Shown in pieces: positions 41,135-64,000 of a stretch of DNA of 64,000 nt. The stretch is taken from assembly GCA_002269645.1 (NCBI GenBank), contig NIVC01001785.1, positions 173,763-237,762 on the forward strand, written 5' to 3'. How positions within the stretch are numbered: position 1 is the stretch's first letter; the number at the start of each line of letters is the position of its first letter. Source of the DNA: Macrostomum lignano (taxonomy: Eukaryota). The notes under the pieces were generated by a model. That model saw only the letters and a program-made list of their open reading frames with translations. It searched no databases and was not told the origin of the DNA. A program made the translations under genes and the position numbers.

Positions 41135-41474
41135 AGTAGTAGGGCGAATTATGATACTGCCGCACTAGCACTGGCGAGATAGGCGGCAATGCAAATGTAT
41201 AGGGAAAAATACACTGCGGAGATATGAGCCCTATCTCTGTGCATTGGGGACGGCTAAGCACTGCAGAGATATGAGCTCTATCTCTGTGCATTGGGGACGG
41301 CTAAGCACTGCAGAGATATGAGCTCTATCTCTGTGCATTGGGGACGGCTAAGCACTGCAGAGATATGAGCTCTATCTCTGTGCATTGGGGACGGCTAAGC
41401 ACTGCAGAGATATGAGCTCTATCTCTGTGCATTGGGGACGGCTAAGCACTGCAGAGATATGAGCTCTATCTCTG
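41135..41474 (+). repeat. Left TIR (340 bp) including five 47-bp units
   Basis: Starts AGTAGTAGGGCGAATTATGATACTGCCGC; matches the right TIR in reverse complement. Confidence 0.93.
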
Positions 41475-41847: not shown

Positions 41848-41855
41848 TATATAAG
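41848..41855 (+). promoter_or_regulatory. TATA box (TATATAAG) of the left-end ORF
   Basis: 101 nt upstream of ATG 41957; CCAAT at 41642-41646. Confidence 0.55.
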
Positions 41856-43375: not shown

Positions 43376-44036
43376 CTAAGCAATTTTTGTACTTTTTTGC
43401 TTTCTGTGTGGAGTGAGAAATCTACCCATTTATTGCAATCATATATACTAAAAATGAAATGTCTGTAACTATCTAGCTATGCGATAGATTTCAGAAAAAG
43501 TGGCTCAACCGATTTTCTTCAAACTTGCACCATTTGATCAGAAATTTTCCTGGGACTGTACATGCATCTTGGCTAAGAAATTGCTTAATTTTAAAGGGAT
43601 TAAATATTCGAAAAACATGCTTTTTTGCAAAGGTCAAGCAGCTCTTTCGACCTGAAATGAATTGTAAAAATGCGAAAGAAAAAACTGACTGACTGAATTT
43701 CAATTGTGATAAAGATTGCATCACAACAAGATGAAAACAGTGTCGAAAAAATGCACACAAGACTTGATTGTAATTGCGTAACCATATTGCTAACTTGAAT
43801 TGAGACTGATACTGGCTGACTGAGAAATTGATTATGTCATAACTTTTTACTCTAACTGACTTGCTATAAGAATTGAATTATAAGGGCCACAATACATGTT
43901 CTCCAATTGAAAAGAGATAGCCAAGATGGGAACAGACTGGACTGCTAATGTAGCGACCTGGGTTCGAATCTTAGTAGTGCAAAAACATTTTTTTATTAAA
44001 ACACTTTAAAACACAAAATGCTAAACATAAAAGAAG

Positions 44037-45830: not shown

Positions 45831-45899
45831 GTGTCATGCCAAACAAAATGAAACCATTATAAAGCTAAGGAAATTGTTGCACTAGCTACTTGTTCTCTG

Positions 45900-46700
45900 G
45901 TGGATGCTTGCTATTTAAGGATGGATACTTGCTATCAGGGGGATGCTTGCTCTTGGGGGTGGAGAGTACTTGCTATCTGAGAGGGGGTTGCTAGATATCT
46001 ATAAGGTATCTTTGTATCCAGGTTATGCTTGCTATCAGGGGTTGCTTGCTGTCTGGGGATGCTTGCTATCTGGGGGGGGGATGCTTGCTATCTAGGGATG
46101 CTTGCTATCTGCGGGATGCTTGCTATCTGGGGGATGCTTGCTATCTGCGGGATGCTTGCTATCTGGGGGACGCTTGCTATCTGGGGTCTGGGGAATGCTT
46201 GCTATCTGGGGATGCTTGCGATCTGGGGGATGCTTGCTATCTGAGGAATGCTTGCTATCTGGGGGATGCTTGCTATCTGCGGGATGCTTGCTATCTGGGG
46301 ATGCTTGCTATCTGGGGTCTGGGGAATGCTTGCTATCGGGGGATGCTTGCAGTCTGGGGGATGCTTGCTATCTGGGGATGCTTGCCATCTGGGGGACGCT
46401 TGCTATCTGGGGTCTGGGGGAATGCTTGCTATCTGGGGATGCTTGCGATCTGGGGGATGCTTGCTATCTGAGGAATGCTTGCTATCTGGGGGATGCTTGC
46501 TATCTGCGGGATGCTTGCTATCTGGGGGATGCTTGCTATCTGGGGTCTGGGGGAATGCTTGCTATCGGGGGATGCTTGCAGTCTGGGGGATGCTTGCTAT
46601 CTGGGGATGCTTGCTATCTGGGGGATGCTTGCAGTCTGGGGGATGCTTGCTATTTGGGGATCAATGCTTGAATGTTGTCTGAGGATGCTTGCTGTCTTGG
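45900..46700. repeat. 18-20-bp satellite in Helitron 1
   Basis: GATGCTTGCTATCTGGGG units. Confidence 0.92.
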
Positions 46701-47501
46701 GATGTTTTGTTTTTAAGAGGGAATGTCTGTTGTTTTTTCTGAAGGCTTTATTTCGCTGTCTATTTGTTATTTGTAAAAAACAAGGATTCTATCCAGATGT
46801 CCCCCATCGGGGGCAAAGATTGCTAGTCCTATATACTAAAAATGAGTTGTCTGTGGGTATGCGATAGATTTCAGAAAAATTGGCTCAACCGATTTTCTTC
46901 AAACTTGCACCATTCGATCAGAAATTTTCCTGGGACGGTACATGCATCTTGGCTAAGAAATTGCTCAATGTTAAAGGGATTAAATATTCGAAAAACATGC
47001 TTTTTTGCAAAGGTCAAGCAGCTCTTTCGACCTGAAATGCATTGTAAGAATGCTAGAGAAAAAACTGACTGACTGAATTCCGATTGTGATAAAGATTGCA
47101 TCACAACAAGTTGAAAACAGTACCGAAGAAATGCACACACAACTTGATTTAAATTGCGTAACCATATTGCTAACTTAAATTGAGACTGATACTGGCTGAC
47201 TGAGAAATTGATTATGTCATAACTTTTTACTCCAATTGACTTGCTGAAAGAATTGAATTATAAGGGCCACAATTCATGTTCTCCAATTGAAAAGAGATAG
47301 CCCTGATGCGAACAGACTGGAATGCTAATGTAGCGACCTGGGTTCGAAGCTTAGTAGTGCAAAAAGATTTTTTTTATTAAAACACCTTAAAAACACAACA
47401 AAACTGCTAAACATCAAAGAAGCGCAATGTCAAACATAGAAGAGCCAACATATCGAACATAAAAGAGTTACCATGTCAAACATAAAAGAGCTACCATGTC
47501 G

Positions 47502-48093
47502 CCATATAGGAAAAAGTTGTAAAACCGCGGACGGTGTCCGGCGCACTTTTGAAATTTTTCTAAAGCGCAGCGCGCGCATAGGCGCAGCGCCTGCGCGCGC
47601 TGCCCTTTCTTACTGGCTGCTGCTCTAGCAAATACATATACATGGAAATGGGTATAATACCTCTGTTGAAGGGGCTTATACACTCGTAATTTATTAAGCT
47701 TAGAGATGTTCCGAAAATTCAATTTCAATTTTCCAAAATTTGAAATTTTTTAGAGCAAATTTCAATTTCGAAATAAAATTTAGAAGTGAAAATTTTGGTA
47801 GTGTCTAAAAAGTCGCTAAAAATAAACTACTTTCTACTACATAAACATGTATTACTTTTTGCTTAAGCAGTAAATTGAAAGTAAAAAAGTGAGTGTTGAT
47901 CATACTAAACTTTGTTTTTCTGAATTATGATTTCGGGAAATTTTAATTTTGATTTTGGAAAGTTAGCGAATTTTGATTTCGACGAAACTGCAGATCTTTC
48001 GGAACATCTCTAATAATCCTAAAGCGCGGTAAAATAGTTTGACTCTTTTCCAAAGCGCGCATCCGCGGGTTTTTAACATTTATTCCAATAGGG
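47502..48093. mobile_element. 592-bp MITE with 8-bp TSD
   Basis: TSD CCATGTCG at 47494-47501 and 48094-48101; ~30-bp imperfect TIRs ending in CCGCGGA; removing it restores a satellite monomer. Confidence 0.7.
47701..48012. mobile_element. 312-bp hAT-like MITE nested in the 592-bp MITE
   Basis: Perfect 16-bp TIR TAGAGATGTTCCGAAA / TTTCGGAACATCTCTA; the flanking 8-mers match at only 5/8. Confidence 0.6.
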
Positions 48094-49169
48094 CCATGTC
48101 GAACATTAAAGAGCCACCATGTCGAACATTAAAGAGCCACCATGCCAAACATAAAAGAGCCACCATGTCAAACATAAAGAGCCACCATGTCAAACATTTA
48201 GGAGCCACCATGTTAAACATATATGTGACTTTATGTCAAATATTAAAGAGCCACCATGTGAAACATTAAAGAGCCACCATGTCAAACATTTAAGAGCCAC
48301 CATGTCAAACCTAAAAGAGCCACCATGTCTAACAGTAAAGAGCCAGCATGTCGAACATTAAAGGGCCACCATGTAGAACATTAAAGAGCCACCATGTCAA
48401 ACAATTAAAAGCCAGCATGTCAAACATAAAAGAACCACTTTGTTGAACACTAAAGAGCCACCATGTCAAACATAAAAGAGACAACATGTCAGACATTAAA
48501 AAGCCACTGTATCAAACATAAAAGAGTTACCATGTAGAACATTAAAGAGCCACCATGTCGAAAATTAAAGAGCCACTATGTAGAATATTAAAGAGCCACC
48601 ATGAAGAACATTAAAGAGCCACCATGTCAAACATTTAGAAGCCACCATGTCAAAGATTTAAGAGCCACCATGTCAAACATTTAAGAGCCACCATGTCAAA
48701 CATAAAAGAGCCACCATGTTAAACATTAAAAAGCCACCATGTCAAACATAGAAGAGCCACCATGTCAGATATTAAAAAGAGCCACCATGTCGAACATAAA
48801 AGAGCCACCATGTCGAACATTAAAGAGCCACCATGTCAAACATATATGTGACTTTATGTCAAACATTAAAGAGCCACCATTTCAAACATTAAAGAGCCAC
48901 CATGTCGAACATTAAAGAGCCACCATGTCAAACATTAAAGAGCCACCATGTAAAACATTAAAGAGCCACCATGTCTAACAGTAAAGAGCCACCATGTCGT
49001 ACATTAAAGAGCCACCATATTGAACATTAAAGAGCCAGCATGTCGAACATTAAAGAGCCACCAAGTCAAACATAGGAGACACAATTTCAAACGTAAAAAG
49101 AAGCGTCATGCCAATCACAAAGGAGCCATTATAAAGCTAAGGAAATTGTTGCACTTGCTACTTATTGTC

Positions 49170-49405
49170 CGGTGGATGCTTGCTATTTAGTATAGGATCA
49201 ATACTTGCTATCAATTGGTTGCTTGCTATCTGGGGTGCTTGCTATCTGGGGGTGCTTGCTATCTGGGGGTGCTTGCTATCTGGGGGTGCTTGCTATCTGG
49301 GGGTGCTTGCTATCTGGTGGTGCTTGCTATCTGGAGGTGCTTGCTATCTGGTGGTGCTTGCTATCTGGAGGTGCTTGCTATCTAGGGGGATGCTTGCTGT
49401 CTTAG
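49170..49405. repeat. 19-bp satellite in Helitron 2
   Basis: GGTGCTTGCTATCTGG(G/A/T)G units. Confidence 0.9.
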
Positions 49406-50367
49406 GATGTTTTCTTTTTGCATTGCACTTCATCTGAGCAGTTTTTCTATTGACTATGTGAAGGCTTTGTTTGGCCATCTTATTGATACTTGTAGAGAAC
49501 AGAGATTCTATCTAGATGTCCCCCATCGGGGGGCGAAGATTGCTAGTTATTGCTAAAACTTTATTTCAACTAGCTTTTTAAAGTTGAAAGTAGGTACATT
49601 AATTAATGATTTGATCATCTCATAACTCTGTATTCGCTTCTAGGAATCTTGCTTATAAGTTTTCAGTTTTCATTTCCAAATTAGTTTTAAAAAAAGCTCG
49701 TAGCTCGTAGTGGCAACCAATATTTTTTTGGTATCCGAGGTAAAAAAAAATTATTTGAAAAGTAGGTGAAACATTATACAGTTGAATTTAACAAATTAAA
49801 ATCAACATAACATACTTTCAATAAATTGGTGATGGTTTCGTATGCTTGGTGCGATTGATTAGGTATAATTTTCTTTCTACTGCTTTGATGCGGTGTTTCC
49901 TCATTCTTTAATTATTGAACTTTTCAGCTATATTTCTGCTTCTAAACTCTCGTCTGTATTTGTAATTCATTGTTCCATGCATTGTTTATTGACTATGATT
50001 GCACCATGTGAATTCGATATTTTTTTAAAAAATATATATATAATGTCAGCATTTTTCCACTCGGTGATTGGTTTGTTAATTAACTATTGGCTTCATTTTG
50101 CATTTTTTACCGATTGAGTCTGCGTAGGAGGCAAATAGAAACGAACTTTTACGAATAGGGATCAATAGAATATGCATGCAGAGAGCTAGCTTAAGGGAGA
50201 ACCAAAAAAATATAACCAGCATCTACTAGCTTGTAAGTGTGGATATTGTACCAGTATTGCAGCAATAAAGACTTACGAAAAAAGATTTCAAATATTCACT
50301 CCCAGTTGCTTATGACACTCAGTTGCAGCCAGTAAACACTGTCAGCTTTTAACTGCTTGCCTTTTCT

Positions 50368-50764
50368 ATGGTTGAGCACTCCTGGATGGAGCAGGAGAAT
50401 GACCACTCATGGATGGAGAATGACCACTCATGGATGGAGAATGACCACTCATGGATGGAGAATGACCACTCATGGATGGAGAATGGCCACTCGTGGATGG
50501 AGGATGACCACTCGTGGATCGAGTATGACCACCCTTGGGTGGACCATGACGTCAGCAGCGAGTCAGCAGCCAGCAGCGAGTCGGCAGCCAGCAGCGAGTC
50601 GGCAGCCAGCAGCGAGTCGGCAGCCAGCAGCGAGTCAGCAGCCAGCAGCGAGTCAGCAGCCAGCAGCGAGTCAGCAGCCAGCAGCGAGTCAGCAGCCAGC
50701 AGCGAGTCAGCAGCCAGCAGCGAGTCAGCAGCCAACAGCGAGTCGGTGACTGATGCACACCAAG
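50368..50764 (+). CDS. Probable first exon of pPolB (MENDHSW x~7, SSESAA x~10 repeats)
   Basis: The ORF reaches a perfect donor CAAG|GTAAGT; splicing to AG 50996 or 51005 is in frame with polB. Confidence 0.6.
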
Positions 50765-50996
50765 GTAAGTGCCTTTATTTATCCTTTTCAACTTACTTAA
50801 AAATTTTCTTATCAATGCGATGTATATTATGCAGTCTAAAATTTTAGTCCAAAGAATGGGAGAAGGGGAGATAAAAGACTTTATACCGGTAGGGTTGTAC
50901 ATGTATGCTTGGGTACAGACGTTTAGTTTAGTATCTTTGATATTTGAAACTATAGGCAGCAAAAAACAAAAATATTATCCTAAAACCACAAACCAG

Positions 50997-53900
50997 GTTC
51001 AACAGTCAGCTTCAGCAGAGTTGCCCAAGCCTATGATCAATCACTGGAAATACTGAGGCTCAGATCGAGTCACCCAGACACGCTTCCGTCAGAATTTTTT
51101 GTCCAAGCTGGAGACAAAATTATTGAGGCAGTTCAGCAAAGAATTTCAAGACATCATTACAAAGTTCAGCTAAAGGCGAATATTCGAATGGTCCGAATAA
51201 GAGATGGGGAGATGCTTGCCGAAGAGGACAGATGGATAAGCTGTAAAATGCAGGCCCTAGACCTAGGTGGTGAAGCAGGCCGTTTAAACAACTGGTTGAT
51301 TGAGCAGGAGCAGGAGTTGGAGAGGATCTGTAGTATGATTAATACGAACGGCAGTGGCTGGACAATTAAACAAATTAATTTTCTAGACATCAACCTTGCC
51401 AGGTACAATCCAATTCGATTTCGCCAGGGCAGAGCCGTTAGATTCAATCTTCCTGCCAGTTTGAAGAACAAAAAGGCTGTTATCAATCCACCGAGCACAG
51501 GCAAAGACTGTTTCCTGTACGCCTGTCTCGCTGCACTGCACAGCGCCGATCCGAAAGTTCAGAAATCGCCCAACAGAATATCCTCTTACGATGAATGGTT
51601 GCGTGAGCTGGACTTTGCAGAAATCTCCATGCCAGTGAGTGTCGCTGATATCGATCGCGTCGAGTCTAACAATCCAGGAATTTGCATTTCTGCGTTCTCT
51701 TGGCAGCAGGGCAGTGTGACTCTTCTCCGTCGCCGCAAGCATGAGTCAGATGACCGAAGACACCTCATGCTTTTGCTAGTTAAAGACAGCTACGGATCGG
51801 AGCACTGGTGTGCAATTACTAATTTTGACAGGTTAATGAACAGTCGTAATGGTCCCGCCATGAGGAAGTGGTGCACGAAATGTTTAACATCATTTTATAG
51901 CAACGAGAGGCTTCAAGAGCACAGGAACGAATGCAGCATTACTGCAGAAAATCCTGTCAAAGAAACGCTTCCAGTTCCAGGACAGAATGAAATAAAGTTC
52001 CGAAACTGTCAAAACACTGTCAGTCCACCATTCGTTGCCTATGCCAACCTGGAAGCCATTTTGCGAGCGAACACAGACCCTGCTAACCTGATCTCAAAGC
52101 ATGAACCATGTGCAGCAGCTTTTCTTGCAGTGCCTCGTGAAGGCATGACAGGACCTCCGCTTAGGCCAGAAGGAGACATGTACAAGGTCTTTTGCAATGC
52201 GGACCCTGATGAGTGTATCCTTGGTTTTCTCAAATCTCTTGAAAGCCTGGCTCAGGATATATTTCACTGGAACCAGAAGCATAGCCACCAGCCGGCTGAC
52301 CGATCATCCGCGACCGTCATGGATGATTTCAATTCTGCTGAGGTATGTCACTACTGCAAGAAGAACTTTAAAAGTTCTACAGATAAACATTTTGACCACG
52401 ATCATTTAAATGGACAGTACAAAGGTGCAGCATGTCAAGAATGCAACCTGCGAGCACAGCTCCGACGCCGGTTTCTGCCCCTGGTTTTTCACAACTTAGG
52501 CGGCTACGACCTTCATCTTCTACTTTCCACTGCGCTTGGGAGCATGAAAAATTGGAAACTTAGTGTTGTTCCGCAATCATCCGAGCGATACTTGTCACTA
52601 AGGGCGGAATTCCCTGTTGCAAGTTACGTAAAGAACGGAAAAGTTGTGCCAATCATGTTTACAATTCAGTTCATCGACTCGCTCTGCTTTTTGAAGGGAA
52701 GTTTGTCCAATTTGTTTGCTAATCTTCCCGAAGCTGAATGCAAGCTGACAATGCAAATGCTTGAGTCAAGACCACATCTTTCAAGAGAGCTACTTCGAAA
52801 AAAGGGATTTTCCCATATGATTACCTCACAGGATTTGAGATTCTCGAGCAGTCGGTTTTGCCGCCTAAAGATGCTTTTTTTAATCGACTTTCCGATCGGG
52901 GAATTTCCGACGACGACTACAATAGAGCAAGAGCGGCATGGGCGGCATTTCAATGCAAAAGTTTGAAGGATTATATGCTCGCCTATCTTGAAATGGATGT
53001 AAGGCAGCTGGCTGACATTTTCGAGACATTCCGACAGGCCAGTCTGAAAGAGGACGGATTGGATCCGGTACACTACTTTACTACTCCTGGTTTGTCTTAC
53101 GACTCAGCTCTAAAGTCGACTGGAGTGGTTCTAGAGCAGCTGACTGATGCTGACATGTATCATCTGTTTGAGAAGGGAATACGAGGAGGCATGTCCTTCA
53201 TTAATGTGCATTGCGTCAAAGGTAATAATCCTAGCTTGCCAGGTTATGATGATCAGCAAGAGAGTGTAAGCCTCATGCCGATCGATATGAACAACTTGTA
53301 TGGCTTTGCCCTGTCGCTTCCGCTTCCATGCAGGGAATTCAGGTGGGTACCGGAACAGGAAATCCAGTTCTGGGACTCCAATCGGTTTCTGTCACTCAAT
53401 CCAGAAGCCGAGATCGCCTACCTTGTTCAACTCGATCTAGAATACCCAGCTGAGATTCACGATTCGACTCAGGAGTTACCGTTTGCACCTGAAAAATCAA
53501 AACCACAGCCAGATCAATTCTCGCCGTACATGGCCGAACTATGGAAAGAGATTGCTGAACAGCGAACTGGCAATGCTGAAGCTAAGTTTCAAGCAACGGA
53601 GAAGCTTCTACTCACCTGTACCGACAAGGATTCTTACGTAGTTCACAGCACCGTTTTAAGATTTTACCTGCAACACGGAATGCGGATCAAGTGCGTCAAA
53701 AAAATGATTTCGTTCAAGCAGGAAAATATTTTCGCGCCGTACATTGCCAGCAACAATGAAAAAAGAGCTTTGGCAACTTCCGAGTTTGCTAAGGATTTTT
53801 ACAAATTGAAAAACAATTCTCTCTTTGGAAAAACTATGGAGAACGTTCGAAAAAGATGCGATGTTCGAATTTGCACTAACCAGACTCAAGCAGAAACTTG

Positions 53901-54645
53901 CGCCTCTCGACCAAACTGTGCCGCATTCTCGATTATCAATGAGTCGTTGAGCATTTTTCAGCTCAAAAAAGATAAAGTCACGCTTGACAAGGCCATTTTC
54001 GTTGGCCAGGCAGTTCTCGATCTCTCTAAGATGGCCATGTACAGCCTACTATATGACAGGCTCCGACCGCTGTTCTGTCATTCAGACGGTTCCAGAGACA
54101 TGATGCTTTGCGGAGGTGATACTGACTCATTTTTTCTAGCTTTCAAGAATCATGATTTAACATCGGAGGTAATCCCGAAGCTTAGAGAGGAAAAAATACT
54201 TGACACATCCAACTATTCTCGAGACCATCCGCATTTCTCTGAAGAGTTAAAAGGAAAGCTGGGCTGCGTTAAAGATGAATCTGCTGGTGGAATTTACCAG
54301 GAGTGGATTCTTTTGCGTCCAAAACTTTATTCGTTTCTCCCTGCCGAGAATTCGAGTGCAAAGATCAAGAAAACTGCCAAAGGCGTGAAGCAGTCAGTAG
54401 TAAGACAGCAAATTTCGCATGCGAACTATGTCGACGCGTTCGAGTCCAAGCAAGAGCAGATGGTTGCCATGACAGCGATTGTTTCCAAGAAACACGAAAT
54501 CTTCACGTCGGTCATGGAGAAAAGAAGCCTATCGGTGTGGGAGGATAAGCGAGTGTGGCTTAGCAGTAATCGAAGCCTGCCCTACGGACACTATGCGCTG
54601 ACGCCCGCATCCCACGATCAGCTGAAGCGCATCCGACTGGTCTAG
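50997..54645 (+). CDS. polB: Protein-primed family B DNA polymerase (pPolB), one frameshift at 52798-52804
   Basis: Frame open from 50984; YANLE (ExoI), CHYC...DHDH...C (endoVII-like Zn insert), FHNLGGYD (ExoII), KGIFPYDY after the shift, DMNNLYG, KLKNNSLFGKTMEN, GGDTDS, LRPKLY, DKRVW. Confidence 0.96.
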
Positions 54646-55227
54646 TGCGGGTGTTTAACAGACTGTTTAGTACTTTTTCTTGCTTTTAGAGTTGTTTAAA
54701 TTGCCAAATTCTGTTTTAAATGTAGTGACTTGCATGTAGTAACTTTTACAAATTTGTATGCTTGGCTAATTGCGCTAGATTTAGCTGTCAATTTGTTTTT
54801 GCGGCGTGAAATATTGATATCAATTTAAGTTTTACTTTTTATAAAGCTGTGTGGCAAGTGCGCTCATACAATATTAATTCATTTTTGTTTGCTTTGTGTA
54901 CTACTTGTTTAAAATGTGTTTTTGGTTTTTATCTGACACAAATTGTTCCTGTAAATTCAATCAGCGTTTTAATCATATTTTCTCTATCACTTTTCTATTT
55001 CTCTTCTCTCGGTGCACATCGTTTGTTATAACGATGGTAGTATTGTTTACTTTCGGATTTGATATGCGTTTTGCGATACTTTTGGTGATGGGCTAAATAC
55101 GTTTTTGAAGTGTTCCATAGCTGTCTGCCTGGGAAAATGAATGTAAAGAATACCAAGTTTATCCTTTTATTCACTTTTCACTAATCATTGAAATATTTGC
55201 GGCAAATTGCTTGACTTGACTTTATTT

Positions 55228-55800
55228 TTATTCAATGGAAAGAACTACATTGAGTAGACGCATGCTATCGGTATGCAACTGATTCAAGGACCGAGCTCCA
55301 CTGAGAACAAAAGAGCCGCTGTGAAAAAGCAGACATTTACAAAAGTTTAAATTGAAAATTAAAGCAGAAAAGGATTCTGGTTCATATTCGGCGTTTGGGA
55401 TAATTGATTTTAACATTAATAAGGAAAGTGCGGAATGAACTGGGAGCTGTCCATGAGCAGTAATAGTTTTAATTCGAACACAAATTGTTTGATGAGGCAG
55501 CAGTTGAGCCGGCACTCTCCGATGCAGCATAGCCACGAAGCGACGGGCAGCCCTTTTGGCGTCTGCGTGGGTCTTGGCACCGCAGATGCTCAGTTGCCCA
55601 GTAGGGTAGAGTAGGAGAGTCACTCTGGGAATCCGCATCCGCTTGATGAGCACCCGGGGCCAGACGGGCCGGTAGATCACATGAGCCATGCTGAGAGCCA
55701 GTTCCCGTAGAGGCAGCTGAGCGCCCCTGCCACCATCCAGTCTCAGATCTACTCCGCCAACCAGATTGGTCACTCTTAGGGCTGTAGCTGGTGGGCTCAT
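55228..55800 (-). CDS. Virus-encoded divergent TATA-binding protein (TBP-like), 190 aa
   Basis: Two TBP repeats: TNLV...YRP...RMRIPRVTLLLYPTGQLSICGAK...AARRF and ...YEPESFSALIF...LLFHSGSFVLSGAR, compared with TBP QNIV...YNP...[23 protein letters not shown]...AARKY / YEPELFPGLIY...LIFVSGKVVLTGAK. First ATG is 55800 (the ORF track starts at TTG 55839). Confidence 0.9.
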   Translation of the reverse strand: MSPPATALRVTNLVGGVDLRLDGGRGAQLPLRELALSMAHVIYRPVWPRVLIKRMRIPRVTLLLYPTGQLSICGAKTHADAKRAARRFVAMLHRRVPAQLLPHQTICVRIKTITAHGQLPVHSALSLLMLKSIIPNAEYEPESFSALIFNLNFCKCLLFHSGSFVLSGARSLNQLHTDSMRLLNVVLSIE

Positions 55801-56320
55801 TTCGATCGTCAACTTCTTCACCAAATCTGCTTCTGCCAACTTTACTGCTCGTGTGCCACGGACACTGCTCGCTTCTTAAGTTGATGCAGAACTTTGGCTT
55901 AAGCCAACTGTAGTGCAGCAACGAATTTCTCACTGCACAGCCAGTATCTGAATCTTCAGTCGAGGGTGCTCCCAAATCTTCTAGGTTATAAACCTGTCTT
56001 CCAAGCAGCTCAGTCAGAAAAATCGACTTCCTTTCCCCATTTGACCAGATCGGACCACTGGCAATGCTCAGAATGTCTTCCGCCAGTTCCATGTACGGAC
56101 GGGTTCCATCATTCCACTTAAACTGGTGCAGACTCTTAGATAGCTGTCTGTAGTAAACTCGCATGTCAGGTGAGACTCTCTCCCATGGATACGGAGGTGC
56201 GTACACATGGTGAGCAATGTGGTAGCTCCCCGCTCTGATTTGAACAACTGCCAACTCCTTCACAACAAATTTTTTGCTTGTGCTGTTGCACGGGAATCCT
56301 TGGAAGTCAATGTAGTTCAT
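55469..56320 (-). CDS. Polinton accessory protein, possible DEDD/RNase H-fold nuclease; C-terminal extension suspect
   Basis: IDFQGF...FVVKELAV...PPYPW...HQFKWNDG...NLEDLGAP...CAVRN...W pattern in the first ~145 aa, recalled from animal Polintons; the rest overlaps the TBP gene in another frame. Confidence 0.55.
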   Translation of the reverse strand: MNYIDFQGFPCNSTSKKFVVKELAVVQIRAGSYHIAHHVYAPPYPWERVSPDMRVYYRQLSKSLHQFKWNDGTRPYMELAEDILSIASGPIWSNGERKSIFLTELLGRQVYNLEDLGAPSTEDSDTGCAVRNSLLHYSWLKPKFCINLRSEQCPWHTSSKVGRSRFGEEVDDRNEPTSYSPKSDQSGWRSRSETGWWQGRSAASTGTGSQHGSCDLPARLAPGAHQADADSQSDSPTLPYWATEHLRCQDPRRRQKGCPSLRGYAASESAGSTAASSNNLCSN

Positions 56321-56349
56321 GATGCAGCTTTCCTTCGAAAATTTCGGAG

Positions 56350-57042
56350 TCAGTCCACCTTCTTATATACTTTTCTGGCAGGCAATTTCAGCCAGGCTGT
56401 GTTGCTCCCGTACCCCTTGACTAGACTCTCCTGTTCTTTCTCCAGTTCACCCCCTCTGCTGGTTGCCATTTTCTTCTTAACTGATTTACCAACAGCGGAA
56501 AGCGGAACATTAAGCTTTTTCTGCTGCAGAAAATCGATGAACTCGTTCCACCCAACTGGTTCACGCTCACATGGCGAATCCCTCACTGTGTGCTGAATCA
56601 AGTCCAGTATGTTTGAGGAAGGGATTGACGTGCCTGCGATTTCCACCTCCCCGTTTTCACAAACTCGAATCAGCTCTGGATTGGTGGACAGGATCGTCCA
56701 CAGACTGCGAGCCCTGGTTTTGAATTTCTGTGGCACCGACTTGCTGATCTTCTCTTCCCAGGTGCTTATCTGGGGTGTCTCTGTTTTCATCAACTTGGCT
56801 TCAGTATTGCGTGCTCCTTCTTTTCCAGCGTGCTTGCGCTTGGCCAGCAAACTTTGCATTGCACTTTGGTACATGGCGGTTTTCACATCTTCTGGACAAT
56901 CCTCGGCATACAAGATGTCATCGCATTTCTTCTGAGCCTGCTTCAAGTCAGCTTCAGTGGTAGTCTCATTTGGCTTCAAATTCTGCATCAACATCTCATA
57001 CTCTGCTTTAGGAATCAGAACCATTTCTGAAAATTTGTTCAT
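56350..57042 (-). CDS. Conserved Polinton/adintovirus protein of unknown function
   Basis: MVLIP...DDILY...Y...SVPQKFKTRARSL...GEVEIAG...SSNILDLI...PVGWNEF...NVP pattern typical of animal Polintons. Confidence 0.75.
   Translation of the reverse strand: MNKFSEMVLIPKAEYEMLMQNLKPNETTTEADLKQAQKKCDDILYAEDCPEDVKTAMYQSAMQSLLAKRKHAGKEGARNTEAKLMKTETPQISTWEEKISKSVPQKFKTRARSLWTILSTNPELIRVCENGEVEIAGTSIPSSNILDLIQHTVRDSPCEREPVGWNEFIDFLQQKKLNVPLSAVGKSVKKKMATSRGGELEKEQESLVKGYGSNTAWLKLPARKVYKKVD
56362..56369 (-). promoter_or_regulatory. TATA box (TATATAAG) upstream of the DEDD-like/TBP-like unit
   Basis: 41 nt upstream of ATG 56320; identical to the boxes at both element ends. Confidence 0.45.
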
Positions 57043-57346
57043 TTTGCTTCTTCTTCTTTACCAGCTTAAGCAGAATCGGGAGTATTTTGATGAAGCCAGC
57101 CTTCAACAAGTCTGTCTTTCTTCTTTTGTGAGTAATTTTTCGAATTATCTCTTTTGACTTTGCAAGAACAGCTTTTTCATCGAGCGAAAACGATAGATTG
57201 TTTTGTAAGAGATTATGGCAGGCCTCGACAAGAAAATAACGCACTTCTTTTGGACAATTTTTTATCAACAGCCGCTTGAAGCGCACGGTATATTTAGGTG
57301 ACGCAAGAACCGCAAAAAGACTTGCATATGAATCAAGCACTTCCAT
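57008..57346 (-). CDS. Small basic conserved Polinton/adintovirus protein (112 aa from MEVLD)
   Basis: RLLIKNC...FLVEACHNLLQNNL...EKAVL...IIRKI...AGFIKILPILL resembles the conserved small virion-associated ORF. Confidence 0.7.
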   Translation of the reverse strand: MEVLDSYASLFAVLASPKYTVRFKRLLIKNCPKEVRYFLVEACHNLLQNNLSFSLDEKAVLAKSKEIIRKITHKRRKTDLLKAGFIKILPILLKLVKKKKQNEQIFRNGSDS

Positions 57347-57387
57347 TGCGATGAAAACAATAGCTGATAAAAACAAGCTTCACTTTC

Positions 57388-58067
57388 TTAAGCAAATACA
57401 AGATGGGGTCGCTGGTTGGGCAGAATTCTGGCCCGCACTCGCAGCTCATCGGGAGTTGATGGGTGAAAGTCTAGGAACAGGTAGGCTCCCCTGCCCTGCG
57501 CGGTCACGTGCTTGAACACTGACAGCAGAAAGCCGGGCTTCTCTGTAAAGCACTGCCTGCCCAGTGCTGCAATCTGCAGCTGGTCTCGGGGTTTTTCAAG
57601 ATAGCTAAGTACATTACATTCAAGCTCATTGTTCGCGACTCTTTTCCCTTGAAAAATATATTCTGAGTCAGCATCACCAAAAAGCACGGCAAGTGATGTG
57701 CGATTCCTGTGAAAAAATTTCGCATTGAAGCAGAGTTTGAAGTTTCCTCTATTAAGTCATCGAAAACAACCAGGTCATTGGGCCTAAGTGCTGCCTCGAT
57801 GTTGGTGGGAAATCCCTGGCGCAGCTGCACACCTAGGCTGTTCAGTTCTGCATGGCCTGCCTGTGAGATCCCATAGTACCACAGAACTCTGCCAGGCTTC
57901 ACATCAAACATGACGTCTCTGTACTGGATCAGGTGTTCGACAAAGGTTGTTTTTCCTGCATTGGTGGGCCCGCAGACAATCATGCAGCTTCCCTGCCTGA
58001 GGCGGATATCGTAGCAAACTTGCTTTTCTCCCATGTTTAATGCATAAATATTAGAAATCACGGACAT
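57388..58067 (-). CDS. A32/FtsK-like genome packaging ATPase, one frameshift near 57588-57596
   Basis: GPTNAGKT (Walker A), VVFDDL (Walker B), LTQNIFFKGKESRTMSLN; the C-terminus PRDQLQIAALGRQCF...YLFLDFHPSTPDELRVR is in the adjacent frame. The true start may be ATG 58034. Confidence 0.93.
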
Positions 58068-58106
58068 CTTTTTCTTAAGTTGGCTTCAAACCTCTGTAAG
58101 ATTCTA

Positions 58107-58568
58107 TCATTCAAATGATTTTTCATTAGCATGCAAATGCTTCAAAATCCCCTCAAATGACCGATTGAACAGAAACTTTTGATAAGCAAAATAGATGCAA
58201 AACATTCCGCATTTATTAGAGTTAGCACATTGAACTCTGTTTATATTGCTTCGGAGCCAAAAGCCAGTTGTTTTAATCTCTCGAAACAAATTATAAACCA
58301 AAGATAAAATTTCAGGTTCCCAGCCGAGGGAGTTGAACAACTCAATGCGATTTCCTTGCCCAACATAGCACACCACCCAGTGACCAAATGAGCCATTGTG
58401 CTGAAGTAGGACAAAAACAAACTTGTTTTCAAAGGAAATTGATGATCTAAATTTTCTTTTTACATTCAAGGGCAGAGAATTTTTATAGCGCAAATGTAAA
58501 GTAACTATGAGAAATTTTTGGTAAGGCAAAAATTTTCTGGCGAGATTAAGTAGTTGAATTGCATCCAT
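58107..58568 (-). CDS. Adenain-like cysteine maturation protease
   Basis: GHWV (His), ELFNSLG, VQCANSNKCGMFC (Gln, Cys); 153 aa, intact. Confidence 0.9.
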   Translation of the reverse strand: MDAIQLLNLARKFLPYQKFLIVTLHLRYKNSLPLNVKRKFRSSISFENKFVFVLLQHNGSFGHWVVCYVGQGNRIELFNSLGWEPEILSLVYNLFREIKTTGFWLRSNINRVQCANSNKCGMFCIYFAYQKFLFNRSFEGILKHLHANEKSFE

Positions 58569-58573
58569 GTCAA

Positions 58574-59855
58574 TTAAGAGGAATAGTCCAGCAAAAGCTC
58601 TCGGTGCTTGGTGACCTCAATCAGCGAGTCATACAGGCACATAGCAATCAGGGACACCGCTTCATTCAGAGCCTGTTGGAAGCGAATCTCCAGCCGCAGG
58701 TTGCCCTCCTTCTGTCCGTACCACAGAGCCGCTCCCTCGGGTGTGAGATCGAATGCAAACACCGTGTGTTGTTGGAGAAGAGCTGGTAGGGGATCCACGG
58801 ACCGAGTTTGTGTGGCTTGCAGATTGACAGCTTTTCAGGTAGTGCAAGTATTCTCTTACGAAGGAATTGTTTTCAGGTGTGAAGGCGCCGTGGCACACGG
58901 TTTCCCCACCTTTCTTTAGAGCCAATCGGCTAAGGTTGAAGCTCTGGAACTGTAACGGGCTCGCGTGATGATGACCGTTGAATGCTCGGTGGCTCACGAA
59001 GGCCAGCATGATGAACTTCGGCAATTTTCCATGAGTGAATCCTTCAATGTTTTTTGACTGAATACCCTGGGGTAGGATGAAGTTCTGCATTTCAGTTCGC
59101 TCGATGGGATACAGTGCATTTTGGTTTGTCAGCCCCTGCTCATGGGCCAGGCTGATGTGGGGCATCACTTTGACTCGGCGAAGATGCAGAATGCTGTGAG
59201 AGATTTCCATTCGGTATGCCGCGTTGTTTGCATTCGGGGTTCTGATGGCAAAGGCCCCATCGCTGGGGACCAGTTTGATGTGCAGGTGCAGATTGCTTAG
59301 CAGAAACACTGGGCACTGGAAAACATCGCTGAAGAGCGGCCCCGCATACTCCATCCATTGGGATTCCCTGTGGCTCTCCGTGTGCTCTTCAGCTGCCGAG
59401 TTCGGCTCCAGGAAGCCAGCAGGGTAAAGTTTTAGTTGCTGGGCATCGGATGAGCTCATTAGTGCTTTGAAGTACGCATGGTAGGGATAGAGCTGGTCTC
59501 CACCAGACACCACTCGCTGGTTAATGCTCACAATTACATCTGAGAAGGCTGTAGACAGAACAAAATTTTCTGGGTGCACGTCACTGTCTCTGCGCTCGGT
59601 GATGATGCCATCTCCATCTCGAACATCCTCCCTCAGCAAACCCCCATCCAGTCTCACAAGGCGGCAGCGAATATAAAGAAAAGAATTAAGCAGATCTGTA
59701 TATTCATCGGCAGATTGGTGGCAGTCAAATTCAATGGGAGAGTTTGCAACAATGGAATTAACTGGGTGAATATCAACATAAGTAGCTTTTTCAATGCAGG
59801 TTTGTAGAACGGGCGTCTTAAATAAATCAAGTCTGGGATTGAATCCGTAAGCCAT
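58574..59855 (-). CDS. Major capsid protein (double jelly-roll hexon), one frameshift near 58832-58835
   Basis: LDLFKTPVLQTCIE...SPIEF...DEYTDL...YPYHAY...AFNG...F; the C-terminus VFAFDLTP...GNLRLEIRF...IEVTKHR..LLDY is in the adjacent frame. Confidence 0.92.
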
Positions 59856-59857
59856 GT

Positions 59858-60235
59858 CTATGACAGAGAGTCGAGCACGCGTTTCACAGTTTTCTTGCTG
59901 ACTTTTTGCTTTCGCTTTCCTCCGCCTGCTCTATTCTTCTTTGCTTTCGTCTTCCTATTCTTAAGCTTTTTCCCACTAGCCTTGCTCGACCTCTTACTGC
60001 GATTTCCACCAGTTGCCTTTCGGGTGCCCTTCTTTTTCTTCAATCGTTTCGGACTTGCTTCAGTATTTCTTTTGCGCCTGACGTTGCTAAGCGTCGAGGC
60101 TGATGATGATGATATAGCCGCTGGCGGAGGCTGGTATGTCATGATCCCTGGGAAGCTCCCACAGCCATAGAGTGCAGGCTTTTCGTGTCCTGTCCTCACC
60201 CCCGAATATTGCTGGATTAGCTGCTGGTAGTTCAT
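59858..60235 (-). CDS. Small Lys/Arg-rich putative core (DNA-condensing) protein, 125 aa
   Basis: Starts MNYQQLIQQYSG...LYGCG and ends in a very basic tail; the ATG overlaps the corrected penton stop (ATGA). Confidence 0.6.
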   Translation of the reverse strand: MNYQQLIQQYSGVRTGHEKPALYGCGSFPGIMTYQPPPAAISSSSASTLSNVRRKRNTEASPKRLKKKKGTRKATGGNRSKRSSKASGKKLKNRKTKAKKNRAGGGKRKQKVSKKTVKRVLDSLS

Positions 60236-61049
60236 TGAATGCGTTTCTCCTGAATTTGAACTGTAAGCAGAACAGGGCTGTGAGTCTGTGCAATCAGTGG
60301 GCAACCATAGATGTCCGCAGCTGAACTCGAATGCTGTGAAGAAGACTGATTCGTTGAATCGGGAAGAATATTGTTTTCTTAAATATTTTTGTTTGATAGT
60401 TGCCCCATTCAATGCCAGCTTTCATTCCAACTGTTCTCAACAAGGAGCTCCAGTTGCAATTAGTTGACTCAACGATACTGCAGTGCACATTGATTAAGCT
60501 GGTGCGCGGGCAGCCAATGCAATGCTCGGATACGCGGCTCCCTGGCTGGATTTTCACAGCCTGGTTTCCAAATCCCAGCCAATGCAGAATTTTACTAGAT
60601 GGAAGAAACAGCTCTGCTCTCGCAGTGTTGTTGTGCACCACAGTTCGTGAGTTGCGGATTTCGAACTTCATACCAAATTCCCTGTTGCCACTACGCCCCA
60701 TCAGGCCGGACTCATCAGCCTCCATCTCAGACTCCCTGTCACTCATTGCATCAAAGAACAGCGAATCAGAGTTGGCCAGCAGCTCATTCAGGCGCTCCAC
60801 CAGCTCCTCCACTCTAGCAAAGCGTCCGGGTTGAAGAACCAGGGCCTCATGCTCTCTTCCATCTGAGACAGTGAAGCAGTAAGGCTCGTCAACATTGAAC
60901 CATGCAGCAGGCAGATGGATTTCAGCCAGACCTGCCTCATAGTCCACATTTCGATCCAAGTAAATAGGTGAAGGCAGGTAAAAATTAAAGTCACTAGGAG
61001 TACCTTCAGCATGCTCACTGTTAATCAAAATAGTTCGCATTATAATCAT
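60232..61049 (-). CDS. Minor capsid protein (penton), one frameshift near 60315
   Basis: DFNFYLPSPIYL...YEAGLAEIHLP..WFNV...PG...LGF...VHCSIVE...LLRTV; the C-terminus DIYGCPLIAQTHSPVLLTVQIQEKRIQ* is in the adjacent frame. Confidence 0.85.
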
Positions 61050-61077
61050 AAACTACATGATGAGGGCTGTGCCAAAG

Positions 61078-62148
61078 CTAAACCTTTCTTAAGTCTTTTT
61101 CATCCACCCAGCCAGTCGAGTCGTAGCCCGCCCATTTCACCAGATAGCGAATTTTTCCCTTCCGCTTCTCCGTTTTCAGGATCTTCTCAATCACATACAG
61201 CCGCTGTGAGTCCGGGACAGCCTGCAGCTCGTGCTCATGGAAGAGTCCTCGAATCTCTTGCCCCCGCATGTCTTTAATCTTGTACATGTAGGGATAATGT
61301 TTTGGGGCTCTGCTCACCACGGTGTACACTTCCTCACTCCAGCTCGCTTTGTATCCCTTTTTGAATATCCGTGGAGCATTGGAAATTCTCACTGACTGGT
61401 TTTCAGCGAACTTAGGCTTCTTTAATTTTTCTAGAGTCTCGACTGCTTTTCCATCGTACAGGTTCATCCACACTTCAGATTCATTCTCTTTGCAGACACT
61501 AGTGGGTGCCATTTTGATGCTTCTGTGGTAGGTATTGTTGTAGGATTTTACCAGCTTAGGCAGCACATCAAGCCAGTGCAGTGTGCTCTTGTAGGTGAAG
61601 TAGCGCCACATTCTACTTTTCAGAGTTCGATTCCATCGCTCAATGACAGCTGCCTTCTGCTCGCTGTTAGTTGGGAAAGCCAGAATCCCTCTGTCAATGC
61701 AGTATTGACGGAAAGTGGAGTTGATAAATTCCTTCCCCTGATCTGTGCGAACTGTGCGTGGCTGGCGCTTTGAACTTCTCAGTATGCTCTCGAATGCTGA
61801 CTTCACTTCTGCAGCAGATTTATTTTTCAGTGCCTTGGCCCAAGCACATTTTGAGAGCACGTCAATGCATGTGAGAATATATTTGTAGCCTTTATTATGC
61901 TTTGCGAATGGAATCATTTCCACTAAGTCAAGTTCCCACTGATCATCGATTGCGCGCACTATGATTGGGGCCCTTGGATATCGCCTCCTAGCTGGCTTGT
62001 GCAGAGTGTGCACTGGCTGCTCGCTGAGCCACTGCTCAATGCTCTTTGCAGATATTCGATCACCTCTTTGCCTCACTTCATGCAGCAACTTTGAGGCACA
62101 AGAAAAACTAGCCGGTTGCTCAGGTTTCAAATAAATTTTCTCCATCAT
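61078..62148 (-). CDS. int: RVE (DDE) integrase with C-terminal chromodomain
   Basis: WELDLVEM (D), RTDQGKEF (D), AVIERWNRTLK (E); chromodomain YVIEKIL...YLVKWAGY...GWV; 356 aa, intact. Confidence 0.96.
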   Translation of the reverse strand: MMEKIYLKPEQPASFSCASKLLHEVRQRGDRISAKSIEQWLSEQPVHTLHKPARRRYPRAPIIVRAIDDQWELDLVEMIPFAKHNKGYKYILTCIDVLSKCAWAKALKNKSAAEVKSAFESILRSSKRQPRTVRTDQGKEFINSTFRQYCIDRGILAFPTNSEQKAAVIERWNRTLKSRMWRYFTYKSTLHWLDVLPKLVKSYNNTYHRSIKMAPTSVCKENESEVWMNLYDGKAVETLEKLKKPKFAENQSVRISNAPRIFKKGYKASWSEEVYTVVSRAPKHYPYMYKIKDMRGQEIRGLFHEHELQAVPDSQRLYVIEKILKTEKRKGKIRYLVKWAGYDSTGWVDEKDLRKV

Positions 62149-62474
62149 GGGTTTATCAAGATACGTGCCTATCCACCTGCTCTAGCTGTACAGTATTTTT
62201 TCTTAAGTAGAAATTTATATTCCAATTAAATGATAGAGAAACGAGTGGCAAATTAATTTATTACTGTCAGATTGAAACCTCTAACATCGTAACAGTCGGT
62301 GTATTTTCCGAAAGCAAACAATCCATAAAAACGAACACTAAAACACTCGCACACCAGCATTTCAGAAATAGCAGAGATAAAAACAGCATAGTGCCGTCAG
62401 GCTGGATAATCATGTGCAAGCTAAAAGTAATTTAGTTAGTCCAATGCATTCAAAGCATTCTAGCTGTTCAGTTA

Positions 62475-62822
62475 TCAAAGCGAACATTGGGCTGCAGCCT
62501 CATCGCGTCCTGCCGACGAAGTTGAAATGGCAGCTTTCGCTTCCTGCTGCTGCTGCTCACCGTCGAAGCCGCTGCATGCGCCTGAACTGATACCACACCG
62601 GATCTTCTCAAGGTTGGTGTCCCGCTGCGGAAGCAGTCCAGCATCAGAATCAACCGAAGGTATCGGTGTGGATGTGATTGGCTCAGTCACAATGCGCGGC
62701 CTTGTGGGCGAGCTAACGTCCTCGTCATCAGCATGATCTCCGCCCTCATCAGTCTCCATTATGGGCTTCGTGTCCTGGTCAGCCTCCAACTTGAGCTTTG
62801 TCCTCTTCCTCCTCTTCCTCAT
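62475..62822 (-). CDS. Acidic/basic disordered ORF, possibly the frameshifted tail of the PC4-like gene
   Basis: MRKRRKR (NLS-like) followed by a D/E/S/P-rich stretch; overlaps the end of ORF 62779-63099 in a GAGGAA-rich run. Confidence 0.4.
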   Translation of the reverse strand: MRKRRKRTKLKLEADQDTKPIMETDEGGDHADDEDVSSPTRPRIVTEPITSTPIPSVDSDAGLLPQRDTNLEKIRCGISSGACSGFDGEQQQQEAKAAISTSSAGRDEAAAQCSL

Positions 62823-63099
62823 CAGACTCCAGCTCGTACTGCATTGTGTTCCTCAAGGGAGCCACCAGCTGACCGTCGATCCAGGAGGCGATTTTCCAGA
62901 GCTTCTGCCACAGCGGCGGAGTCAGTGGTACGGCGTTTCGTCTCAAAAACTCCTCGCAGCAATCTTCCGGCAGCCGTTTGAGCCAAATGATGCCGCCTTT
63001 GACTTCCACAAACTTATCGAAGCCGAGTTTCACGACCTTGGGCTCGTTGTTGCGTGCAGAAATCACAAGTGAGCGTTTCCCTCCTTCAATTTCTTCCAT
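62779..63099 (-). CDS. Second, divergent PC4/Sub1-like domain
   Basis: KLGFDKFVEV...NAVPLTPPLWQKLWKIASWIDGQL compared with PC4 QIGKMRYVSV...[24 protein letters not shown]; acidic tail ESDEEEEEED. Confidence 0.6.
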   Translation of the reverse strand: MEEIEGGKRSLVISARNNEPKVVKLGFDKFVEVKGGIIWLKRLPEDCCEEFLRRNAVPLTPPLWQKLWKIASWIDGQLVAPLRNTMQYELESDEEEEEEDKAQVGG

Positions 63100-63239
63100 T
63101 GGTGAACATTCAGGTTGAATCCTGGGACGCCTGGCTTCAGACTTGCCGTGCTGCCGTGTCGGTAAAATTTGCGAATAGCGATAAATTTTTGTCCTTCAAA
63201 CTCCTGGACTTGTGCCTTATAGCCTTCACAGATGTCCAT
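63063..63239 (-). CDS. PC4/Sub1-like ssDNA-binding coactivator domain (58 aa, absent from the ORF track)
   Basis: MDICEGYKAQVQEFEGQKFIAIRKFYRHGSTASLKPGVPGFNLNVHQWKKLKEG compared with PC4 FKGKVLIDIREYW...[19 protein letters not shown]. Confidence 0.85.
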   Translation of the reverse strand: MDICEGYKAQVQEFEGQKFIAIRKFYRHGSTASLKPGVPGFNLNVHQWKKLKEGNAHL

Positions 63240-63343
63240 TTTCCTTTCGCAATTGAAAACTCACAAAAGTTAAAAGCTGAGGAAAATTTCGGATGAAATT
63301 TTGGATTTGAAAAATTGAGAATTCTTTCTTGTCAATTTCGGGG

Positions 63344-63404
63344 CTTATATACCCTCGACCGAACCACCCCAAACCACCCATCCCACTCCGGGCTCTGTGA
63401 TTGG
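63344..63404 (-). promoter_or_regulatory. Right-end Pol II promoter: CCAAT box and TATATAAG
   Basis: CCAAT at 63404-63400, CACCC/GT boxes, and TATATAAG at 63351-63344, ~105 nt above the PC4-like ATG 63239. Confidence 0.6.
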
Positions 63405-63679: not shown

Positions 63680-64000
63680 CAGAGATAGAGCTCATATCTC
63701 TGCAGTGCTTAGCCGTCCCCAATGCACAGAGATAGAGCTCATATCTCTGCAGTGCTTAGCCGTCCCCAATGCACAGAGATAGAGCTCATATCTCTGCAGT
63801 GCTTAGCCGTCCCCAATGCACAGAGATAGAGCTCATATCTCTGCAGTGCTTAGCCGTCCCCAATGCACAGAGATAGAGCTCATATCTCTGCAGTGCTTAG
63901 CCGTCCCCAATGCACAGAGATAGGGCTCATATCTCCGCAGTGTATTTTTCCCTATACATTTGCATTGCCGCCTATCTCGCCAGTGCTAGTGCGGCAGTAT
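63680..64000 (-). repeat. Right TIR (321 bp visible) with five 47-bp units
   Basis: Reverse complement of 41154-41474. Confidence 0.95.

Follow-up and report, generated by a model that had tools for sequence, protein, structure and literature searches.

A TATA-type motif before the virion genes of a Macrostomum lignano Polinton and its probable reader, the element's own TATA-binding protein

Late promoters of beta- and gammaherpesviruses (TATTWAA) place a modified TATA box before virion genes, which is read by a viral protein with a TATA-binding protein (TBP) fold (ORF24/BcRF1/UL87) and a more polar DNA face that works with host RNA polymerase II (Pol II), and other genes carry canonical TATA boxes (described in PMC6541308 and PMC12529657). 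Transcription from these TATT promoters starts ~30 nt downstream (PMC6541308). ORF24 is described as a large protein of a six-factor complex which needs all four intercalating Phe residues and the adjoining Pro and binds Pol II directly. Polintons/Mavericks (adintoviruses) have terminal inverted repeats (TIRs), a protein-primed DNA polymerase B (pPolB), integrase, protease, ATPase and putative capsid genes in common, and whether they count as real viruses that pass through a regulated productive cycle, and what turns such a cycle on, is a long-standing question. By keyword, the main texts of published Polinton studies (PMC8502044 with preprint 10.1101/697771, PMC11296320, PMC11131425, PMC10748475) contain no mention of promoters. 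TBP appears in the main texts of the adintovirus paper PMC8502044 and preprint 10.1101/697771 just as a figure-legend label, and the supplements may label TBP genes. Among the top-ranked open papers returned by full-text literature searches, none, judged by title and start of abstract, describes Polinton promoters that are read by an element TBP. Here we describe a short motif that precedes genes of a Polinton in a 64,000-nt stretch of the M. lignano contig NIVC01001785.1 (the window), and which is very likely a promoter element of the TATA type. Judged from sequence comparison, we assign a probability of about 0.7 to the reading that it is a family-specific TATA variant recognized by the TBP that the element itself encodes.

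The motif CTTAAGAA occurs in six exact copies (starting at 55873, 57385, 58072, 59958, 61086 and 62200), all on the minus strand, which is the coding strand of the gene block concerned, and neither strand of the 64 kb holds another. This agrees with a sequence-only reading of the window, whose gaps between motif and ATG also reproduce: 51 nt for integrase, 36 for penton, 102 for hexon, 37 for ATPase, 38 for the small basic open reading frame (ORF), 72 for the TBP-like gene and 38 for a near-copy, CTTAAGCT. Distances below are counted from the first base of the motif to the ATG. Conservation was followed in an alignment of seven lineages of the window's family (clades A and B), picked from 17 fetched and 71-96% identical in pairs. 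The copy at 62200..62207 (minus strand, like all sites in this paragraph) is intergenic, 59/62 nt above the integrase gene and 55 nt past an AATAAA, and (C/T)TTAAGAA stands ~39-62 nt above the integrase start in 7/7 lineages, though the flanks are unalignable. The copy at 61086..61093 is written in the final integrase codons (TTA AGA) and precedes the putative minor capsid gene by 44/53 nt; it is identical in 7/7 lineages and is found in the distant family C too. The basic core ORF is preceded at 148 nt by TTTAAGAA (60376..60383), which falls within the minor capsid gene, was missed by the sequence-only reading and is identical in 7/7 lineages. The copy at 59958..59965 falls inside the core ORF and precedes the putative major capsid gene by 110 nt; it keeps TAAGAA in 7/7 lineages (CCTAAGAA in three of them), the surrounding protein being just 46-52% identical in clade B. 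Two further copies are identical in 7/7 lineages. One (58072..58079) sits in the 3' end of the protease gene and precedes the ATPase ATG at 58034 by 45 nt; the other (57385..57392) lies where the ATPase region ends and precedes a 112-aa basic ORF by 46 nt, and here the motif holds the TAA stop and the conservation includes the non-coding GAA past it. At 56360..56369, 47 nt above ORF 56320, TATATAAGAA consists of canonical TATATAAG overlapping the variant TATAAGAA; this TATAAGAA site (56367), likewise missed before, has TAAGAA in 7/7 lineages, as TTTAAGAA in clade B. The last copy (55873..55880) lies within ORF 56320, 80 nt above the TBP gene, and is identical in 7/7 lineages. The near-copy CTTAAGCT (57063..57070), which the sequence-only reading had placed before a Met at 57024 of the MVLIP ORF, is kept in 3/7 lineages only, the conserved start of that ORF being 57042. 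CTTAAGCT (57070), GTTAAGAA (56481) and CTTAAGCC (55903) were dropped as members since they are not conserved.

The raw count of copies is weak evidence. Whole-window shuffles gave a mean of 2.67 copies and reached six or more in 7 of 100 (p ~0.07). Within the block 55201-63300, CTTAAGAA ranks first among 8-mers under each of three Markov models, with 0.21, 0.15 and 0.39 copies expected (orders 1-3) and Bonferroni p values of 0.007, 0.0008 and 0.24. The shuffle result, the order-3 value and the fact that all exact copies but one are located in, or overlap, coding sequence, a caveat that had already been raised together with the stop codon, would be compatible with chance or with a codon artefact of Leu-Arg-Lys or Leu-Lys runs at basic C-termini. 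Conservation removes both. TAAGAA is identical in 7/7 lineages at 7/7 alignable gene junctions, and in a look-alike set of 25 reference-copy sites that begin with TA and have at most one mismatch to TAAGAA all seven fully kept sites are junction copies; the other 17, which exclude the unalignable integrase copy, decay, none being kept in more than five lineages. As background, 805 of 7180 six-base windows (11.2%) are identical across the lineages, and synonymous divergence (dS) between the two clades is 0.5-3.0 by a rough Nei-Gojobori estimate. The conserved copies use three reading frames, and they also coincide with a stop codon and with non-coding DNA, where the copy is still kept in 7/7 lineages. 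Of 225 Leu codons 20 are TTA, and where Leu is conserved the lineages agree on the codon in just 46 of 176 cases; the three TTA-AGA copies nevertheless do not vary. Because of this junction-only conservation, the background rate, the dS and the invariant TTA-AGA, we regard chance or codon bias as extremely improbable. As a separate observation, the sister lineages (L049-L065) are mosaic, with 95-98% identity in capsid genes vs 58-65% in a gene for a PC4-domain protein, and one of them (L059) switches clade within the block; together this indicates frequent recombination.

The feature extends well beyond the window. In family C, whose TBP is 37% identical, the homologous junctions carry TATAAGAA 140 nt above the core gene, CATAAGAA 107 nt above the major capsid gene, TATAAGAA above the basic ORF and above the homologue of ORF 56320, and canonical TATAAAAG 53 nt above the TBP gene. 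From this interchange it follows that the window box can be described as TATAAGAA relaxed at positions 1-2, and we therefore take the motif to be a TATA box whose sixth position is G and which keeps the register of T-A-T-A-A-G-A-A. It does not match the canonical consensus (TATAWAWR), from which CTTAAGAA deviates at positions 1, 2 and 6, and just the 56369 site overlaps a canonical TATA box. Two families of the same genome have their own boxes at gene junctions, TATAAG(C/T)A in family X and TATAAATA in family Y, and 16 metagenome fragments (group M) have a TATAAAC box, mainly as CTATAAAC; TAAGAA is not enriched in group M (13 sense and 9 antisense in 36.6 kb). A single-locus cross table showed that each family is dominated by its own exact variant. 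Sense to antisense counts were 68:3 (A/B), 12:0 (C), 41:1 (X), 18:0 (Y) and 72:21 (M), and 54/68 sites in A/B, 31/41 in X, 17/18 in Y and 32/72 in M lie 20-175 nt from an ORF start, where 16-25% is expected. The same comparison bears on an RNA-level role, in which the motif would be a splice or trans-splice acceptor, a 3'-end signal of the upstream gene or a re-initiation element on a polycistronic message. The motif contains AG, most copies are near the end of the upstream gene, and genes abut or overlap, as such a signal would have it. Variants lacking AG (TATAAATA, TATAAAC) nevertheless fill the same junctions, the flanks upstream of the motif are often purine-rich, processing at the copies that lie 100-150 nt ahead of the upstream stop would truncate the upstream gene, and the integrase copy is intergenic and beyond an AATAAA, making this explanation very unlikely. 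Scans of viral contigs for related elements gave nothing but one distant integrase-bearing contig (L114, IMG/VR), which resembles virophages and Polinton-like viruses, has a Polinton-type integrase and helicase, ATPase and protease-like ORFs, and is unrelated to the motif question. Accessory genes of families X and Y (L085-L104) encode a dUTPase, a phospholipase A2-like domain and a Fic domain.

The sequence-only reading had placed the motif at a fixed distance from the start codon, which overstated the regularity. The distance is 44-62 nt for integrase, minor capsid, ATPase, the basic ORF and ORF 56320, and 80, 110 and 148 nt for the three others, so that there is a floor and a mode. When families were pooled, 51 of 97 de-duplicated sites lay 40-59 nt above the ATG and 11 under 40; the minimum among the 25 pooled sites of the window's family was 39 nt. 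Out-of-frame ATGs were found at 18 of 1266 positions at offsets 6-28 from the motif vs 8 of 1870 from offset 33 on (82 sites, p 0.0027), and seven control triplets showed no comparable drop beyond +30. These data fit transcripts that start ~30 nt below the motif, as from a TATA box, and not at an initiator of the baculovirus type. Baculovirus late initiation falls inside the TAAG motif. A late initiator of the baculovirus or nudivirus type, (A/T/G)TAAG, would be served by the polymerase of a helper virus, the element then being a satellite of the virophage kind. Families A/B, C and X do have the TAAG core, and TAAG is described as invariant in baculovirus late genes (PMC13483298). The likeness to DTAAG, drawn in the sequence-only reading, does not extend to families Y and M, which have TATAAATA and TATAAAC without TAAG at the same junctions; moreover, conservation reaches 8 nt, beyond TAAG, and both the tolerance of out-of-frame ATGs in the first 28 nt past the motif and the ~39-nt floor fit a start well downstream. 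We consider a helper-read initiator quite improbable. RNA contigs from four of 24 listed runs showed no splice joints over 54700-63400 and no shared loose end at the motifs; as contigs cannot show starts or strand, they were counted neither way.

The block ends with the gene for the element TBP (55228..55800, minus strand), a 190-aa protein of two lobes (PF00352, E 7.9e-25). Its structural model (predicted local distance difference test, pLDDT, 85.8; predicted template modelling score, pTM, 0.78) has the two-lobed saddle fold, with a template modelling (TM) score of 0.81 to human TBP (1cdw). The ratio of non-synonymous to synonymous divergence (dN/dS) is 0.16-0.24, and 0.11-0.13 in the N-lobe, so the protein is under purifying selection. 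The host TBP (L105) is canonical. In yeast numbering the element protein differs from the host TBP by F99P, F116Y, V122S, T124C, Q158K, N159T, V161T, P191S and V203K, and it retains N69, V71, L114, F190, L205 and F207. Thus, the columns of the four intercalating Phe hold Pro, Tyr, Phe and Phe, the Pro beside the third Phe is replaced by Ser, and several saddle residues have become polar. In yeast, L114F permits TATAAG; the element TBP has Leu there. The acidic C-lobe stirrup (YEPE) is present in all 7 lineages and in P0002-P0004, and stirrup glutamates are reported to contact TFIIB (PMC7221094). Family C, which also uses TAAGAA, has nearly all the changes of the window TBP. Pro after the third Phe is described as favouring T at TATA position 1 (PMC12529657); A/B and C have lost it and vary at position 1; X and M have kept it and have T1 nearly fixed. 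Tyr in place of the second Phe, together with a hydroxyl residue at the V122 column, is found in the three groups whose box has G at position 6; M, Y and the host lack it. Family X is perhaps sister to A/B/C (support 0.625), so the Tyr/hydroxyl change may be one event. Such links between TBP residues and motif letters are suggestive.

TBP-like genes accompany the box in families C, X and Y and in the one group M fragment that is long enough (L069), with a partial match in L076, and canonical boxes stand above the TBP gene in C, two X copies and L069. The family-Y protein matched PF00352 at 23.0 bits (cut-off 22.9), and a profile comparison gave a probability of 95.9 (E 5e-9), the members of the profile having been collected by a search whose seed alignment included family Y; another profile comparison for this protein was discarded as circular. 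Among TBP-like frames of family X, L110 had no Pfam match and L107 stayed under the cut-off. In one lineage of family X (L108/L112; G000:C297, C1391) the TBP-like frame runs into a P-loop domain resembling deoxynucleoside kinase, which suggests a TBP-kinase fusion.

A comparison with elements in which no TBP was detected was provided by family Z, which is abundant and distantly related and of which six copies were chosen before their TBP status was known, at least three of the six having both terminal repeats. Between the terminal repeats a search for TBP-like frames found none (best E 0.11 and 0.038), X and Y controls giving 6e-10 to 4e-5 with a cellular-type profile. Family Z has no shared upstream motif, its top 6-mer 20-175 nt upstream being present in 4 of 9 genes; the corresponding figures are 8 of 10 genes in the window family, 6 of 9 in X and 6 of 8 in Y. 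In the families compared, box and TBP-like gene co-occur. As a side observation, 8 of 9 gene starts examined in family Z (L115-L126, e.g. G000:C142:335200-354300) consist of an A-run that ends in AAATG and is usually preceded by a T-rich stretch. AAATG after an A-run resembles late starts of the poxvirus type, and family Z may depend on a cytoplasmic helper virus.

Several results weigh against reading by the element TBP, or against the regularity on which it draws. Three genes have the motif at 80 (TBP), 110 (major capsid) and 148 nt (core), and two genes of the block, the protease gene and the MVLIP ORF, have no conserved copy. The ATG test used 82 of 97 sites, 15 having been dropped (distance under 36, weak M variants, GTTAAGAA), for the window family alone it gave 3/371 vs 2/417 (p 0.45), and the 82 sites show no CA/YR initiator peak at offsets 10-45. 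Sites of family C are not significantly near ORF starts (5/12, p 0.10), the X, Y and M patterns were picked by eye after the data had been viewed, and related copies inflate the pooled counts. In the protein, the changes of the first Phe to Pro and the second to Tyr could weaken DNA binding, and family Y is an exception to the Pro rule, having lost Pro yet kept T1. The covariation of TBP and motif rests on few independent contrasts, and the only negative control is family Z, which is distantly related and gives one contrast. The strongest precedent on this side is the adenovirus 5 E2-early TATA box, ccTTAAGAGT, described as a poor-match, lower-affinity site of human TBP (bioRxiv 10.1101/2020.09.26.315002). 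It is the main support for a different assignment of the reader, in which the motif is a weak TATA box used by host TBP/TFIID, perhaps with the PC4-domain protein or other activators, and the element TBP is otherwise employed, for instance as a decoy or inhibitor. The fully canonical box of family Y (TATAAATA) and the intercalating Phe of which the element TBP is short would suit that assignment as well. Reading by the host leaves unexplained why, in one host with one canonical TBP, each family has a different exact variant; the N-lobe of the element TBP is strongly constrained, and family Z, with no detected TBP, has no box. On balance we judge host reading unlikely. The proposal of the sequence-only reading, a TATA-like element ~30 nt above the start that is the target of a viral TBP, is thus supported in part: the type of element, probably the spacing to the start and plausibly the TBP, given the conservation across lineages, the interchange with TATAAGAA and TATAAAAG, the distance floor, the ATG pattern and the missing box in the family with no detected TBP; its fixed spacing is not supported.

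With the element TBP as most likely reader, the following scheme can be drawn. The core promoter would have the consensus (C/T)(T/C/A)TAAGAA, often written in the last codons of the upstream gene, and would front integrase, capsid, core, packaging and accessory genes, among them nearly every virion-building gene. Each gene would be its own transcript starting ~30 nt downstream, and the transcripts would probably form a nested set ending at a tandem AATAAA directly after the TBP stop (55221..55232, minus strand), a candidate common 3' end of the block. The 190-aa TBP, with its altered DNA face, is predicted to bind the motif, and since the TFIIB-binding stirrup is kept it could recruit host Pol II. 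Canonical TATATAAG is found above the PC4-domain gene (63344..63351, minus strand), a candidate early promoter for host TBP, and above ORF 41957 (41848..41855, plus strand; sequence match), and most of the sister lineages shown have canonical-type TATA boxes above the PC4-domain gene. These genes may be early and read by the host, and the motif genes late; canonical boxes on these genes and, in C, two X copies and L069, on the TBP gene would be the layout of an early-to-late cascade. In the window family the TBP gene is itself behind CTTAAGAA, and weak reading by host TBP could prime a positive feedback, for which the hybrid box TATATAAGAA upstream may be an alternative source. More tentatively, and with rather more doubt than confidence, one large group of animal Polintons may possess a minimal orthogonal switch, a small TBP co-evolving with a private TATA variant, by which families in the same genome fire only their own virion genes. 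In the window family the TBP would drive its own gene as a bistable latent-to-productive switch, and the families would offer natural altered-specificity TBP-TATA pairs. A virion-gene promoter class with an element TBP is a concrete and cheaply testable mechanism for the productive cycle of Polintons, and points to a small private late-gene switch in elements whose gene regulation is largely unstudied. If correct, it would set self-sufficient nuclear Polintons apart from the TBP-less, box-less family. The boxes CTTAAGAA, TATAAGAA, TATAAG(C/T)A, TATAAAC and TATAAATA would form a natural TBP-TATA series for the study of TATA recognition.

The element carrying the motif is a Polinton that runs from ~41135 (AGTAGT) to the contig end at 64000 and is multicopy in the genome, with at least 18 matches at 99-100% identity (17 of 262 candidates scored) and 152 genome-wide matches to its TBP at 38 to 100% identity. 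A protein in the databases that bears the label Macrostomum lignano shares 99% identity with the TBP. Its long inverted repeats start with AGT, as in Polintons; the left one (41135..41474, plus strand) begins AGTAGT and the right one (63680..64000, plus strand) is cut by the contig end, which is also the window end, leaving inverted arms of 321 nt that are 100% complementary. The pPolB is encoded in two frames (51188..54645, plus strand; PF03175), preceded at 50368-51190 (plus strand) by a repeat-rich ORF with an AG/GTAAGT donor-like site at ~50766 just before its end, and the polymerase gene may be spliced. Compared with sister copies, the copy in the window has several broken frames. The genes on the minus strand comprise the PC4-domain gene (62475..63239; PF02229, E 5.5e-8 on a sister copy; frameshifted here), the integrase with chromodomain (61078..62148; retroviral-type, PF00665, and PF00385), the putative minor capsid protein (60235..61049; frameshifted near the 3' end, with a longer frame in sister copies), the basic putative core protein (59858..60235; 125 aa, at the same position in other families), the putative major capsid protein (58575..59855; frameshifted here, 29 relatives via a sister-copy ORF), the adenain-type protease (58059..58568; PF00770 above cut-off, frameshifted near its end), the packaging ATPase region (57387..58034; frame split near the 3' end), the basic ORF (57008..57346), the MVLIP ORF (56350..57042; 230 aa) and ORF 56320 (55469..56320), of unknown function, which overlaps the TBP gene and whose homologues precede the TBP gene in family C and L069. 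A Pfam scan gave no match for the putative capsid proteins, which are named from position, size, synteny and unnamed relatives. The ATPase is assigned from its P-loop and its homology to sister-family ATPases, its AAA matches in Pfam being weak and under the cut-off. The 112-aa basic ORF, an ORF call, presumably belongs to the cupiennin-like class of adintoviruses. Internal AATAAA also occurs at 61896, 61824 and 58217. A non-coding interior at 43400-49560 has large tandem-repeat blocks and a ~600-nt duplication (~43440-44030 / ~46830-47450) and is possibly inserted or expanded DNA; a run of TATATATA lies at 50033-50042. At 62542-62823, three RNA contigs have a diverged or rearranged 3' region of the PC4-domain gene, probably of sister-lineage origin.

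Compared with known systems, the adenovirus 5 E2-early box shares the hexamer TTAAGA, also as a TATA box, but it is a single early promoter used by host TBP, whereas the Polinton motif stands before eight genes of an element with its own TBP. Baculovirus late promoters, described as (A/T/G)TAAG read by a viral RNA polymerase (PMC13483298), have the TAAG letters before structural genes in common with it; TAAG is absent in families Y and M, the ATG pattern argues against an internal start, and no polymerase subunit was found among the ORFs scanned. TBP-like proteins from large double-stranded DNA viruses are likewise two-lobed with a diverged surface (Ravarani et al., PMC7221094). Those viruses are described as mostly encoding their own TFIIB and often having a TBP that lacks the stirrup glutamates (PMC7221094), whereas the Polinton TBP has YEPE and no TFIIB was found among the 16 window ORFs scanned. 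The closest parallel is the herpesvirus late system, with its modified TATA before virion genes, its TBP-fold reader with a polar DNA face, its use of host Pol II and the canonical TATA boxes of other genes. The Polinton motif is not TATTWAA, and no ORF24-type partner factors were found among the ORFs scanned. Unlike ORF24, the Polinton TBP is a bare 190-aa protein with an acidic TFIIB stirrup, it has lost one Phe and the Pro, and its motif is a different one that varies by family. By analogy, the Polinton system would be like the herpesvirus viral-TBP late-promoter system in its working and not a member of it; if so, the herpesvirus-type strategy also exists in one-protein form in 20-kb elements.

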